Origin: Minisyncoccota bacterium
GTDB taxonomy: Bacteria > Patescibacteriota > Minisyncoccia > Minisyncoccales > JAQTVQ01
DNA: 64,000 nt
Assembly: GCA_041657385.1 (NCBI GenBank)
Contig: JBBABZ010000004.1
Span: forward strand, 1,867 to 65,866
Direction of reading: 5' to 3'
The notes beneath the pieces were generated by a model. It made no database searches. It had not been told where the DNA came from and saw nothing but the letters and a program-made list of their open reading frames with translations. This document shows positions 28,897 through 49,451 of this stretch, one piece after another. Both the position numbers and the translations under genes were made by a program. Within the stretch, counting starts at the first letter, position 1. The number at the start of each line of letters is the position of its first letter.

Positions 28897-29140
28897 ATTT
28901 TTCGATTAACAAGTATTTCCGTTTCTAACAAATAAAAATGGCAATTTGGATTATATAATAAATCAGCTTTTTTTCCAAGAAAATAGCCTAAATAAACTAC
29001 CCCGCAGCAAGCTGACGGGGTATTCCCTTCCTGCCTACCGGCAGGCAGGCGCTATCGCTACGGGAAAAGTTTGTTTAATCCTCCGTTCGCTATGCTCACT
29101 ACGGGCTGGTATTCATCCCCGCCCTTTTGGGACCAGATTA

Positions 29141-35122: not shown

Positions 35123-35254
35123 AGCTAAAAGTGTAAAGCGTAAAGTAATAGTGCCTGCCTGCCGGTAGGCAGGTAAAGCTAAAAACAACGAACGAATATT
35201 TTAAGTTTTTCGCTGTTTTTTGCGTTTTTCGCTTTGCACTTTACGCTTTTACTC

Positions 35255-38013: not shown

Positions 38014-38066
38014 CCCTGTGGATAACTCACGAAAAACTGGTCGAGGCCGGGCCTCGACCAGTTTTT
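38014..38066 (+). repeat. Terminator-linked repeat element: CCCTGTGGATAACTCAC + A5 + perfect 11-bp GC-rich hairpin + T5
   Basis: TGTGGATAA is at 38017-38025 and the hairpin CTGGTCGAGGC-CGG-GCCTCGACCAG at 38037-38061. It sits between two convergent genes. Confidence 0.75.
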
Positions 38067-38088
38067 ATCGCGGAATATAAGGCTTTTT

Positions 38089-46857: not shown

Positions 46858-47012
46858 AGATAAGGTATAGCCTTAAAAATCTTAGATGTAAATATAACTT
46901 GAAACTGGTCGAAGTTCGCTTTGCCCCTACCTATCGGCAGGCAGGCGCCGTAGTCCCGCCGAAACGGGACGAAGGAGGGGCTTCGACCAGTTTTGCTTTT
47001 TAAAGTTATAGT

Positions 47013-47969: not shown

Positions 47970-48881
47970 TTATTCAAAAAGTTTGGTGCTTAGGTATTTT
48001 TCTCCTCGGTCCGGGAAAATAGTTACTATGTTCTTTGCTTCGCCTTGAGGGTCTACCTTTTCGGCTATTTTTAACGCGGCCAGCATTGCCGCGCCGCTAG
48101 ACATCCCGACAAAAATTCCCTCTTCTCTTACAATCCGGCGAGACATTGCAAAAGCTTCTTCTGTATCGATTTCAATAATTTGATCTAGCTGGGATTTATC
48201 ATAAATAGCTGGCACTATCGCATCTTTCATATTTTTTAGGCCTTGGATATAGTGTCCCCTGACCGGCTCCGCGCTGACGATCTTCACATCGGGTCCGCAC
48301 ATTTTCTTTAAAAAAGAACCTACGCCCATCAAAGTTCCGGAAGTGCCGATGGCGGCCACAAAATAATCAACCTGTCCGCTCATTTGCTGGCAGATCTCTT
48401 TGGCCGTTGTTTCGTAATGGGCGACTTTATTGTATTCATTGGAAAATTGGTCTGGCGTATAATATTTTTCCGAAAATTCTTTGACCAGCTCCCTTACTTT
48501 CATTATCGCGCCGTCAGTTCCTTTATCTCCGGGAGTCAAAGTTATTTTTGCCCCGAAAGCTCTGATCATTTTTTGCCTTTCAATAGAAACAGCCTCGCTC
48601 ATCACGACTTCAACCGAATAACCTTTAACTGCACCGATCATGGCCAAGGCAATACCTGTGTTTCCGCTTGTGGCTTCGATAATGGTTTTTCCTTTAACTA
48701 ATTTTCCCTCTCTTTCCGCTTGTTCCAGCATCCGCAAAGCGATTCTGTCCTTAATACTTCCTCCCGGATTTACTCCTTCGATCTTGGCAAAAATATTTGC
48801 CTTGGGATTTTGGTTTAATTTATTTATCTTCACTAAAGGCGTATTACCAATAGTCTCCAAAATGTTTTTAGCGTAATTCAT
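47970..48881 (-). CDS. cysK: Cysteine synthase (O-acetylserine sulfhydrylase family, PLP)
   Basis: It contains KIEGVNPGGSIKDR, TSGNTGIALA and GTSGTLMG. Confidence 0.9.
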   Translation of the reverse strand: MNYAKNILETIGNTPLVKINKLNQNPKANIFAKIEGVNPGGSIKDRIALRMLEQAEREGKLVKGKTIIEATSGNTGIALAMIGAVKGYSVEVVMSEAVSIERQKMIRAFGAKITLTPGDKGTDGAIMKVRELVKEFSEKYYTPDQFSNEYNKVAHYETTAKEICQQMSGQVDYFVAAIGTSGTLMGVGSFLKKMCGPDVKIVSAEPVRGHYIQGLKNMKDAIVPAIYDKSQLDQIIEIDTEEAFAMSRRIVREEGIFVGMSSGAAMLAALKIAEKVDPQGEAKNIVTIFPDRGEKYLSTKLFE

Positions 48882-48916
48882 AAAAATGTAATTAATTTAC
48901 GGACAGTTATTCTTGA

Positions 48917-49020
48917 TAAAATTGTCGAGGCCCGCTTCGCCCCTGCCTACCGGCAGGCAGGCGCCGTAGCTTTAGCGAAGGCGGGGCTTCTGCCAGTTTT
49001 TAGCGAGTTATCCACAGGGA
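48917..49020 (-). repeat. Terminator-linked repeat element with a nested GC-rich palindrome and DnaA-box 9-mer
   Basis: TTATCCACA is at 49008-49016. CCTGCCTACCGGCAGGCAGG at 48942-48961 is nested inside the outer hairpin arms (GTCGAGGCCCGCTTCGCC / GGCGGGGCTTCTGCCAG). Confidence 0.7.
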
Positions 49021-49044
49021 ATTTATTAATAATTATTCTCTTTA

Positions 49045-49080
49045 AATAAAAAACCTCTTTCGGTTTAGGGAAGAGGTTCT
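49045..49080 (-). terminator. Intrinsic terminator after the Cys-rich mini-ORF (candidate attenuator)
   Basis: The minus strand reads AACCTCTT-CCCTAAACCGA-AAGAGGTT followed by TTTTTTATTT. Confidence 0.65.
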
Positions 49081-49104
49081 TTTGTTGGAATTTATTTTAG
49101 GCCT

Positions 49105-49218
49105 TTATCTCGTTGTTTCGAGTCTACAACATACCGGTCCAAACAAATTAACCTCTTTCTTACAAGAAGAAGAACAACAAACGCAACAAGAAGAAATTTG
49201 GTTAATTTGTTTATTCAT
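49105..49218 (-). CDS. Untracked 37-aa Cys-rich ORF, candidate cysK leader peptide: MNKQINQISSCCVCCSSSCKKEVNLFGPVCCRLETTR
   Basis: Translated by hand: ATG at 49218-49216 and TAA at 49107-49105. It has 7 Cys and 5 Ser codons. On the minus strand a TTGACG-17-TATTTT promoter lies at 49254-49226, directly upstream. A terminator lies 25 nt downstream, and cysK follows on the same strand. Confidence 0.55.
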   Translation of the reverse strand: MNKQINQISSCCVCCSSSCKKEVNLFGPVCCRLETTR

Positions 49219-49300
49219 TAATATAAAAATACCAAACCCTAACCCCGCCGTCAAGTTAAAATTTACAAGAAAAATAAAGAACCCCCCTATTTTATTAGTA

Positions 49301-49352
49301 AAAAACTAGCCGAAGCCCGGCTTCCGCAAGTTTTTAATGATTTATCCACAGT
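49301..49352 (-). repeat. Terminator-linked repeat element with DnaA-box 9-mer
   Basis: The + strand reads AAAAACTAGCCGAAGCCCGGCTTCCGCAAGTTTTTAATGATTTATCCACAG, with TTATCCACA at 49342-49350. Confidence 0.7.
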
Positions 49353-49451
49353 TCATAGATAATAAATATGCACAGGTGACACCTGTGCATCTCTAGCTCT
49401 GGTATTCTCCAGAAAGGGTTAGACCCTTTCTGGAGAATCATCTGCCAAGGG

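Follow-up and report, generated by a model that had tools for sequence, protein, structure and literature searches.

What is the function of the short, cysteine-rich ORF that lies upstream of a cysteine synthase gene in this DNA, and does it belong to that gene at all? The window, by which we mean the whole 64-kb stretch of DNA analyzed, is a Ca. Paceibacterota contig, present in ENA ERZ27247350 and SRA SRR18595299. An original prediction held that the ORF is the leader peptide of a ribosome-mediated attenuator responding to cysteine. That reading is supported by the recurrence of the arrangement in relatives, by its strand-specific enrichment, and by a co-varying antiterminator. From these sequence comparisons we put the probability at roughly 0.8 that the leader controls cysK by ribosome-mediated (leader-peptide) transcription attenuation, with charged tRNA-Cys as the sensed signal. 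Because the same design recurs in many relatives, a classical ribosome-stalling switch is very likely.

The leader and the gene that it would regulate comprise the following features.

49254-49226, minus strand: sigma-70-type promoter TTGACG-17-(TGg)TATTTT, identified by promoter scan with 9/12 matches and a TG extension.
49218-49105, minus strand: leader ORF of 37 codons plus stop, translating to MNKQINQISSCCVCCSSSCKKEVNLFGPVCCRLETTR.
49188-49174, 49164-49162, and 49131-49126, minus strand: leader ORF Cys codons 11, 12, 14, and 15; 19; and 30-31, respectively.
48881-47970, minus strand: the regulated gene, a cysK/cysM-type cysteine synthase (NCBIfam TIGR01136, cysKM; 376.5 bits against a cut-off of 344).

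Translation and codon counting bore out the predicted 37-codon minus-strand ORF, with 7 Cys and 5 Ser codons. In the long ORFs of the window 1.09% of codons encode Cys; at that background, the binomial probability of 7 or more Cys among 37 codons is 1.4e-7. No other intergenic ORF of the 64 kb has a Cys run; the five further Cys-run ORFs lie inside or antisense to larger ORFs. The promoter that had been proposed, TTGACG-17-TATTTT, was recovered by the promoter scan, which added the TG extension. The ATG follows 7 nt after the end of the −10 hexamer; given this spacing, transcription is predicted to begin on the AUG at 49218 or a few nucleotides away from it, which would make the mRNA leaderless or almost leaderless. 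The leader peptide was searched in a TTG-extended form of 49 aa, which had no homologue among 5.8 billion proteins; comparison with Pfam returned no family, and a keratin match below threshold is meaningless.

The downstream gene had been taken for cysK, starting at 48881 on the same strand as the leader, and its product passes the NCBIfam cysKM cut-off. The further claim that no convincing promoter separates the two agrees with a scan of the interval between 49045 and 48882, in which there were no minus-strand promoter-like sites of at least 9/12. Weak AT-rich promoter matches can always be found by eye. The distance from terminator to cysK in the window is 162 nt, and because this interval, with its repeat hairpin, intervenes, a weak cysK promoter downstream of the terminator is conceivable. 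No Shine-Dalgarno sequence was found ahead of cysK in the window, and no radical-SAM or other maturation genes adjoin the leader.

The pairing segments and hairpins of the transcript are listed below.

49212-49200, minus strand: R1, AAACAAAUUAACC, anti-antiterminator strand, in perfect 13-bp pairing with 49153-49141.
49162-49141, minus strand: R2, UAAGAAAGAGGUUAAUUUGUUU, partner of either R1 or R3 and holding the in-ORF AAGAGGUU copy at 49157-49150.
49140-49100, minus strand: local spacer hairpin, holding Cys codons 30-31 and the stop codon; specific to the window.
49086-49066, minus strand: R3, AACAAAAGAACCUCUUCCCUA, holding the terminator 5′ arm AACCUCUU at 49078-49071.
49059-49044, minus strand: R4, AAGAGGUU as the terminator 3′ arm (49059-49052), followed by UUUUAUUU.
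49017-48917, minus strand: copy of a dispersed intergenic repeat, with CTGTGGATAA (49017-49008), an outer hairpin, and a nested GC-rich hairpin (48961-48942).

The octamer AAGAGGTT, said to serve both as the terminator 3′ arm and within the ORF, was located on the minus strand at 49157-49150 and 49059-49052, with its complement at 49078-49071. As only ∼2.6 copies are expected per 64 kb, three within 110 nt are not a chance pattern. The antiterminator built on this octamer stands as a pairing, but its extent had been understated: 49162-49142 pairs with 49086-49066 over 21 nt with 81% complementarity. We also found a helix that was absent from the original prediction, in which R1 pairs perfectly over 13 bp with the part of R2 at 49153-49141 and the Cys run sits in the enclosed loop. 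R1:R2 has an energy of −16.1 kcal/mol, which 0.05% of shuffles equal or better, and is present in both the MFE and the centroid structure. R1–R4 thereby give three mutually exclusive helices, namely 1:2, 2:3 (the antiterminator), and 3:4 (the terminator), which are similar in strength (−16.1, −16.9, and −14.2 kcal/mol). With R1:R2 included, the predicted layout is the classical one for a leader-peptide attenuator.

The terminator hairpin itself (49078-49052) is modest, with 8 bp including 3 G-C, an 11-nt loop, and an interrupted U-tract. Because of its 11-nt loop, a strict terminator scan listed the hairpin on the other strand only. An intrinsic terminator at 49080-49045 ending in U6 had been described; the hairpin is there, but two of those U residues belong to the stem, and what follows the 3′ arm is 4 U, an A, and then UUU. 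The second long hairpin (49020-48917) is likewise present, but it is not a leader-specific element, being a copy of two nested dispersed repeats. L004, the closest relative, does not have it, and there 25 nt separate the terminator from cysK. We considered the second hairpin as a component of the switch and ruled it out on its dispersed nature and its absence from L004. The repeat copy at 49017-48917 has no U-tract on the minus strand and is therefore probably read through; repeat copies without a U-tract occur at the equivalent position in L088-90.

How a ribosome on the leader ORF would choose among these helices can be set out for the two states of cysteine supply, assuming that the ORF is translated. 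With cysteine plentiful, the ribosome would pass the Cys codons and then cross R2, behind it R1 (49212-49200) would pair with R2 (49153-49141), and R3 would be left free for R4. The terminator (49078-49052 plus U-tract) would then form, and transcription would stop upstream of cysK (OFF). With cysteine scarce and Cys-tRNA low, the ribosome would stall with its A site on Cys codons 11-15, between R1 and R2, leaving R2 just past its leading edge. R2 would capture R3 once the latter was made, the terminator would not form, and RNA polymerase would continue through the U-tract-less repeat into cysK (ON). Stalling at the second Cys pair (codons 30-31) would have the opposite sign. The ORF of L004 ends at the equivalent of window codon 29.

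Folding models were used to examine these states. The full-length free leader RNA folds as 1:2 plus terminator, with a terminator probability of 0.89, and the fold z-score of the window leader is −2.5, a modest value. In the full-length equilibrium model a ribosome stalled at C11-C15 scarcely lowers the terminator probability (0.81–0.89), and for the window this type of model, in which the ribosome footprint is masked, fails to tell the ON state from the OFF state. A second model considered transcripts ending just before R4, again with the ribosome footprint masked. Here a stall at C11-C14 gives P = 0.94–0.98 for pairing of the terminator 5′ arm, and a ribosome over R2 gives P = 0.25–0.30. This second model proved the more informative, but in it, too, the OFF branch stays kinetic.

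The position of the stop codon far past the upstream octamer had been flagged as a difficulty for the exact register of the ribosome, and the difficulty is real. The stop codon lies 15–45 nt beyond R2 in the window, L004, L084, L088, and L101; for the window, R2 stays unmasked when the ribosome is at the stop codon, so that the antiterminator is not blocked thermodynamically (P = 0.94). A ribosome that has reached the stop codon covers R2 in L008, L094, L091, and L007, where pairing of the terminator 5′ arm has P = 0.19–0.31. Because R2 is left free in the window, the OFF state there depends on a kinetic argument, namely that R1:R2 would form first. We infer that the 13-bp R1:R2 helix could in this way get round the distant stop codon.

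Relatives were gathered by a protein search with cysK and by nine exact-protein contig look-ups. As a check, the original prediction had proposed looking upstream of cysK in relatives for further Cys-rich mini-ORFs with a duplicated arm; the order promoter, Cys-run mini-ORF, terminator, cysK was found in 13 distinct Patescibacteria-type loci, whose leaders are widely divergent in sequence. Among 78 genome loci, Cys-run ORFs upstream of cysK occur in 11 in the sense orientation and in none in antisense, as against 0.65 on average and at most 4 in shuffled sequences. All five of the further relatives that were fetched carry one as well (5/5). Every one of the 13 loci has a promoter of the type seen in the window, matching at 9–12 of 12 positions, and a terminator consisting of hairpin and U-tract. 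The −10 element lies 6–9 nt from the ATG in 8/13, and the terminator ends 15–26 nt from the cysK start codon in 6/13. The leader ORFs contain 3–7 Cys codons. cysK is constant across the loci while the upstream neighbors differ, and in L098 and L021 it is followed by cysS. The CPR loci L005, L006, L010, and L012 have no Cys run.

In an alignment of eight leaders made with MAFFT, R2 aligns well, and R1 and R3 align poorly because spacer lengths differ and the pairing register shifts. Owing to this poor alignment, per-locus comparisons of duplexes with shuffles and permutation tests of matched against mismatched pairs were used. The antiterminator pairing is individually significant in 12/13 loci (at most 3% of shuffles as good). 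Pairing of R2 with the terminator 5′ arm has a mean energy of −14.8 kcal/mol for matched loci and −9.6 kcal/mol for mismatched ones. The matched energy was equaled in 0/20000 permutations, and in at most 7/40320 for the subset of divergent loci. Covariation, named at the outset as a way to judge the alternative pairing, is thus on its side. A compensatory change is seen between AAGAGGUU/AACCUCUU in the window and AGGAGGUU/AACCUCCU in L088. R1:R2 is significant in the window, L088, L091, L008, L094, and L096; the same duplex test gave no significance in L004, L084, and L101. In 12/13 loci the antiterminator strand starts 19–30 nt past the first CC codon; the exception is L091, where the site lies 65 nt past the first CC codon and ∼9 nt past the last Cys codon.

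These observations bear on what else the mini-ORF might be. It could be a small gene in its own right, with cysK transcribed separately, and could encode a RiPP precursor or a Cys-rich peptide that may bind metal or act in redox chemistry. Its own strong promoter and terminator and the 162-nt gap to cysK in the window would suit such a gene, and a gene for a Cys-rich DUF2769 protein adjoins the leader in L088-90, so that small Cys-rich proteins do exist in such neighborhoods. However, the peptide has neither a homologue in the 5.8-billion-protein search nor a Pfam family, the peptides of the various loci range from 14 to 44 aa and share the Cys run only, and maturation genes of the radical-SAM or other kinds are not adjacent. 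The AARGRGGYT motif of R2 is translated in some loci and lies past the stop codon in others, and it co-varies with the terminator arm; its conservation as RNA, inside or after the ORF, therefore speaks against a functional peptide. The mini-ORF is also always found with cysK despite changing upstream neighbors, and in six loci the terminator is only 15–26 nt from that gene. We regard an independent gene as very improbable, and the metal-binding peptide that had been offered as the alternative to attenuation is not supported, in view of a Cys run as the only shared feature, variable length, and a motif kept past the stop codon.

The two other candidates retain a regulatory role for the leader and change its mechanism. 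Somewhat less improbable than a separate gene, though still unlikely, is translational attenuation responding to Cys as in mycobacteria: stalling would unmask the cysK ribosome-binding site, and termination would play no role. The closest experimentally proven system works in this way (bioRxiv 10.1101/834739), and the predicted leaderless start is as in mycobacteria. Nevertheless, all 13 loci have the hairpin and U-tract, whose 5′ arm is precisely what the competing pairing hits; cysK has no Shine-Dalgarno sequence to hide; and the leader structures of the window are 160 nt from the cysK start, with an inserted repeat between. Least probable of all, in our view, is that the region acts as an RNA that senses a ligand or works without protein, such as a riboswitch, a T-box-like element, or an sRNA, with the ORF being incidental. 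Alternative terminator and antiterminator folds mark riboswitches too, and the modest fold z-score is compatible with this view. Yet no Rfam gathering threshold was reached anywhere in the 64-kb window, and a permissive scan of 48700-49450 gave chance-level matches only, the best sub-threshold one being itself a leader-peptide attenuator (Phe_leader, RF01859; 21.1 bits against 55, E = 0.65). No conserved aptamer-like core is visible in the leader alignment. What the divergent leaders share is solely an ATG frame with an in-frame Cys run before the antiterminator strand, at a roughly fixed distance from it. Transcription attenuation through a translated leader, with cysteine as the predicted signal, is the reading we retain.

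The arrangement may reach beyond bacteria. Short ORFs with CCC or CCCC occur upstream of cysK in L021 (cysK-cysS), L029, L031, and L062, which are labeled as DPANN or other archaea. The cysK genes concerned are closely related (65–70% identical), and the short ORFs begin ∼21–27 nt past a TATA-like box. Pfam families among the neighboring genes pointed decisively to neither domain for these contigs. It is possible, but on balance doubtful, that a poly-Cys short ORF and cysK together make up a regulatory cassette of ultra-small prokaryotes, either ancient or spread horizontally. If that were so, the CPR bacterium of the window would have tight transcription-translation coupling and regulated cysteine synthesis. 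Were the contigs truly archaeal and the ORFs active in cis, they would represent amino-acid-sensing leader-peptide control in Archaea, of which we know of no demonstration; they are in any case a concrete place to seek attenuation there.

Patescibacteria are uncultured, genome-reduced, and mostly regarded as host-dependent, and to the best of our knowledge next to nothing is known of their gene regulation. If the attenuator reading is true, they retain tight transcription-translation coupling, employ leaderless mRNAs as sensors, and actively adjust cysteine synthesis to how much charged tRNA-Cys is available. To our knowledge, cysteine is not among the amino acids of the textbook terminator-type leader peptides; the cysK leaders of Patescibacteria would add it. 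They would also show the mycobacterial poly-Cys ORFs and the cysS motif of alphaproteobacteria to be parts of a broader theme that seems to be convergent. In practical terms, a Cys-run ORF could provide a simple annotation rule for cysteine-regulated genes in metagenomes, and the divergent cysK leaders offer a ready covariation set for the mechanism.

The classical transcription attenuators are the trpL, hisL, pheL, thrL, leuL, and ilv leaders of amino-acid operons. The leader described here resembles them in having a short ORF rich in the cognate codons and an intrinsic terminator before a biosynthetic gene, and in its segments 1–4, whose exclusive 1:2, 2:3, and 3:4 helices would be chosen between by ribosome position. 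It differs in that cysteine would be the amino acid sensed, the host belongs to the Patescibacteria (CPR), and a leaderless mRNA is predicted. The regulatory codons sit in the loop between segments 1 and 2 and not inside segment 1, and in the window subtype the ORF extends through segment 2. By neither sequence nor structure is the window leader a member of any Rfam leader family.

Cys-responsive attenuators are already known from mycobacteria, where they are translational, and from upstream of cysS in Rhodobacterales. Cys-codon leader peptides have also been described upstream of cys and cbs operons in Actinobacteria (Seliverstov et al. 2005, PMC1262725). Those leaders are likewise short Cys-run ORFs upstream of cysteine genes; no terminator hairpins were found with them, and Rho-dependent termination was suggested (PMC1262725). 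The uORFC-8-2 motif, a predicted ribosome-mediated attenuator upstream of cysS in Rhodobacterales (Brewer et al. 2021, PMC8632094), shares with our leader tandem Cys codons in a uORF and a terminator stem with a U run. By its description, however, it occurs only upstream of cysS in alphaproteobacteria and has two Cys codons at about positions 14-15 inside the first stem (PMC8632094), whereas here the target is cysK, sometimes cysK-cysS, the Cys codons number 3–7 and in the window lie in the R1-R2 loop, and sequence and phylum differ.

The polycysteine leaderless short ORFs of mycobacteria, termed the Cys ribulon (Canestrari et al. 2020, bioRxiv 10.1101/834739), likewise have a poly-Cys ORF upstream of cysteine-metabolism genes, at an apparently leaderless 5′ end such as is predicted for our leader, and ribosome pausing on Cys codons as the sensor is what we propose for our leader. 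The Cys ribulon is defined by at least two consecutive Cys codons upstream of a cysteine-related gene, and the window leader has these. In the locus studied in detail, control is translational, by hiding the downstream Shine-Dalgarno sequence, without an intrinsic terminator (bioRxiv 10.1101/834739). In contrast, the leaders described here come from a different phylum, lack sequence similarity to the mycobacterial ones, and have as their predicted output a conserved terminator/antiterminator pair.

The minus-strand ORF upstream of cysK translates as originally reported, giving MNKQINQISSCCVCCSSSCKKEVNLFGPVCCRLETTR, in which 7 residues are Cys and 5 are Ser. Against a background of 1.09% Cys codons in the long ORFs of the window, the binomial tail probability of at least 7 Cys among 37 codons is 1.4e-7, and no other intergenic Cys-run ORF was found in the whole 64 kb. 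The ORF's own promoter was recovered by a consensus scan, together with a TG extension. Because the -10 hexamer ends 7 nt short of the leader ATG, the leader mRNA is predicted, from the usual -10-to-start distance, to be leaderless or nearly so. The downstream gene passes the NCBIfam cysKM cut-off, and a promoter scan of the minus strand from the terminator to cysK returned zero sites of at least 9/12.

Features of the leader and cysK
49254-49226, minus strand, promoter TTGACG-17-TATTTT
49218-49105, minus strand, leader ORF
49212-49200, minus strand, segment R1, AAACAAAUUAACC, with perfect 13-bp pairing to the 3' half of R2 (49153-49141)
49162-49142, minus strand, segment R2, 21 nt, 81% complementary to R3
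49086-49066, minus strand, segment R3, including the terminator 5' arm, the partner of R4
49059-49052, minus strand, segment R4, the terminator 3' arm, pairing with the 5' arm in R3
48881-47970, minus strand, cysK

Six of the seven leader Cys codons are TGT (49188-49126); TGC is favored by 145 to 54 in the window's long ORFs, an uncurated set. In the window the Cys run is bordered by SS and SSS (49194-49162), and in 9 of 18 leaders a Ser codon lies immediately 5' of it. The carbon of cysteine comes from serine; the adjacent Ser codons may reflect chance, nucleotide bias (TCTTGTTGT) or dual sensing.

A repeat search combined with folds yielded a four-segment layout in which 1:2 pairing forms an anti-antiterminator, 2:3 an antiterminator and 3:4 the terminator. 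The octamer AAGAGGTT is present twice on the minus strand (49157-49150 and 49059-49052), with its complement at 49078-49071. The terminator hairpin is present, with an 11-nt loop, but its U-tract was overstated: two of the six U residues counted originally are stem bases, so the tract following the 3' arm is the shorter UUUUAUUU. The three duplexes have similar energies, at -16.1 (1:2), -16.9 (2:3) and -14.2 (3:4) kcal/mol. A duplex of the R1:R2 type and of equal strength arose in only 0.05% of shuffles, and the loop of R1:R2 holds Cys codons 11-19. In the fold of the free full-length RNA, the terminator (probability 0.89) is combined with 1:2 pairing and a spacer hairpin.

The window belongs to a Ca. 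Paceibacterota (Patescibacteria) genome, and assemblies from both ENA and Logan contain the same contig. CysK is 91% identical at the nearest genome locus. We scanned the 400 nt 5' of cysK at 78 genome loci for ATG ORFs of 6-70 residues containing CC and at least 3 Cys in a stretch of 6 residues. Eleven loci had a match in the sense direction and none in the antisense direction, against 0.65 on average and at most 4 in 200 shuffles. Contigs were retrieved for nine more close relatives by CysK, and the eight that cover the upstream region all have a Cys-run ORF. In all, the mini-ORF recurs at 13 distinct bacterial loci (the window and the cysK loci L004, L084, L088, L091, L094, L096, L098, L101, L007, L008, L009 and L014), each with a promoter scoring 9-12/12, a Cys-run ORF of 14-44 residues, a hairpin with a U-tract and then cysK. 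The -10 hexamer lies 6-9 nt from the ATG at 8 of the 13, and the terminator ends 15-26 nt before cysK at 6. At L098, cysK is followed by cysS. The genes upstream of the leader vary (DUF5666, DUF2769, malic enzyme, UMPH-1 and hypotheticals); therefore, the element travels with cysK. The DUF2769 protein, of 74 residues with 10 Cys, is encoded directly 5' of the Cys leader in three close relatives, at L088:189-413, L089:604-828 and L090:534-758. At four CPR loci cysK is preceded by a short ORF of another kind, with a strong promoter ahead of it and a terminator after it: a conserved ORF of 60-70 residues without Cys in L005 and L006 (about 2100-2500), and a 32-residue ORF with one Cys and a Gly/Ser-rich stretch in L010 and L012 (about 2310-2500). 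These may represent other kinds of leader control, and the Cys leader is therefore common rather than universal.

At each of the 13 loci, the stretch from the first CC codon to the terminator was searched for its strongest pairing with the terminator 5' arm, and the result was compared with shuffles. At 12 of them no more than 3% of shuffles did as well. The antiterminator site begins 19-30 nt past the first CC codon at 12 of 13 loci, just past the leading edge of a ribosome whose A site holds that codon. The exception is L091, where the site follows a later Cys cluster. The alternative pairing co-varies, the post-Cys segment pairing with its own arm at a mean of -14.8 kcal/mol and with the arms of other loci at -9.6 kcal/mol. 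The matched mean was reached by 0 of 20000 permutations, and by 7 of 40320 within eight mutually divergent loci. Compensatory changes relative to the window include AAGAGGUU/AACCUCUU to AGGAGGUU/AACCUCCU in L088, UUUGUU/AACAAA to UUUGCU/AGCAAA in L004, and GGUU/AACC to GGCU/GGCC in L091. At the nucleotide level, the AARGRGGYT motif of R2 is kept both in leaders that translate it (window, L004, L084, L088, L091 and L096) and in those that carry it 3' of the stop codon (L008 and L094). R1:R2 pairing was significant in the window, L088, L091, L008, L094 and L096, and not significant in L004, L084 and more distant leaders.

This recurrence and co-variation support the ribosome-mediated attenuation originally suggested, and we consider it probable (roughly 0.8) from comparative sequence analysis that the window leader is a classical attenuator sensing Cys-tRNA. 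Ribosome positions were modeled on transcripts ending just before R4, the ribosome being represented by a 28-nt mask around the A site. With the ribosome stalled at Cys codons 11-14, the terminator 5' arm was sequestered with a probability of 0.94-0.98; with the ribosome over R2 this fell to 0.25-0.30. A full-length RNA equilibrium model did not discriminate between the Cys-scarce and Cys-plentiful states in the window. With the ribosome at the stop codon, R2 is masked in the relatives L008, L094, L091 and L007 (5' arm sequestered at 0.19-0.31), and in the model these loci show simple textbook logic. The original doubt about register was well placed for the window subtype, in which the ORF continues through R2: the stop codon lies 45 nt past R2, and a ribosome there leaves R2 unmasked (0.94). 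Termination in this subtype would instead depend on R1:R2 re-forming behind the ribosome ahead of R3 transcription. A second Cys pair, at codons 30-31, occurs in the window only, and a stall there would work in the opposite sign.

A free-standing gene for a Cys-rich peptide is unlikely, given that no homologues or Pfam family were found, the Cys run is the sole conserved part of the peptides, R2 is kept as RNA and the element is strictly linked to cysK. A riboswitch or sRNA is unlikely too: the in-frame Cys run is the only feature universal to the leaders, and no Rfam family matches. Translational attenuation of the mycobacterial type is also improbable, since the conserved competing pairing is directed at one arm of the terminator, and no Shine-Dalgarno sequence that could be sequestered was recognizable before cysK at 48882-48900 (minus strand, ...TAAATTAATTACATTTTT); L004 likewise has none. 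Taken with leader ORFs that are apparently leaderless, this lack points to unusual translation-initiation signals in the lineage.

The second long hairpin (49017-48917) exists as described, but it is one copy of intergenic repeats dispersed through the window and lies outside the switch. It was rejected as a switch component, being absent from the closest relative, L004, where 25 nt separate the terminator end from the cysK ATG. Given this absence and the copies elsewhere, the repeat is an insertion into the leader-cysK spacer. In the outer repeat, CTGTGGATAA(CTCAC) is followed by an A-tract, then a GC hairpin and then a T-tract. The window has five copies; the 9-mer TGTGGATAA, a perfect DnaA box, is found 5 times where 0.38 would be expected.

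Outer repeat and nested hairpin copies
38016-38080, plus strand, outer repeat, clean T-tract end
47967-47913, minus strand, outer repeat, clean T-tract end
49017-48963, minus strand, outer repeat, leader-cysK spacer, no U-tract on this strand
49351-49297, minus strand, outer repeat, clean T-tract end
59893-59840, minus strand, outer repeat, no clean T-tract end
29030-29049, 35154-35173, 46926-46945 and 48942-48961, GC-rich palindromic hairpin CCTGCCTGCCGGTAGGCAGG (four copies, 0 expected)

The hairpin copies at 48942 and 46926 sit within the hairpin of the outer repeat. The outer copies at 38016, 47967 and 49351 look like bidirectional terminators, and the repeat may be a REP- or MITE-like element or a protein-binding site. 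In L088-90, copies flank the leader on both sides, those at the position equivalent to the spacer copy again without a U-tract. Two more hairpins (49438-49404 and 49395-49363, minus strand) lie between a DUF5666-like gene (49919-49452) and the repeat before the leader promoter, one with perfect 16-nt arms and a 3-nt loop and the other with 16-nt arms of 88% complementarity and a 1-nt loop. Counting the repeat's own hairpin, three successive stem-loops follow that gene.

On four contigs labeled archaeal, a related cysK is preceded by short ORFs with CCC or CCCC.

Short ORFs on archaeal-labeled contigs
L021:2337-2405, short ORF, followed by cysK then cysS
L029:2370-2438, short ORF
L031:2277-2321, short ORF
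L062:2167-2220 and 2306-2386, short ORFs

The labels of these MAG contigs are Woesearchaeota, Aenigmatarchaeota, "uncultured archaeon" and Methanosarcinales. Their Cys runs (CCC, CCCC or CSCC) end no more than 3 residues from the stop codon, and the ORFs begin about 21-27 nt 3' of a TATA-like box. If the labels are correct, these ORFs may exert leader-peptide control in archaea.

Full-text literature searches, of incomplete coverage, returned no report of a Cys leader in Patescibacteria or of cysK with a terminator-type Cys leader. Cys-responsive ribosome sensing has been proven by experiment in mycobacteria, where leaderless poly-Cys short ORFs sequester the ribosome-binding site (bioRxiv 10.1101/834739). 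A Cys-responsive leader without terminators has been predicted in Actinobacteria (PMC1262725), and a terminator-type Cys uORF 5' of cysS in Rhodobacterales (PMC8632094). The top Rfam match over the leader (49202-49044, minus strand), to the full-length Phe_leader model, is below threshold (21.1 bits versus 55, E = 0.65); the leader is not a member of that family, although its topology resembles this known leader-peptide attenuator. Nor is it a sequence member of trpL, hisL or the mycobacterial short ORFs, yet it shares with the last the amino acid and an apparent leaderless start, and its proposed working mode is that of trpL and hisL.
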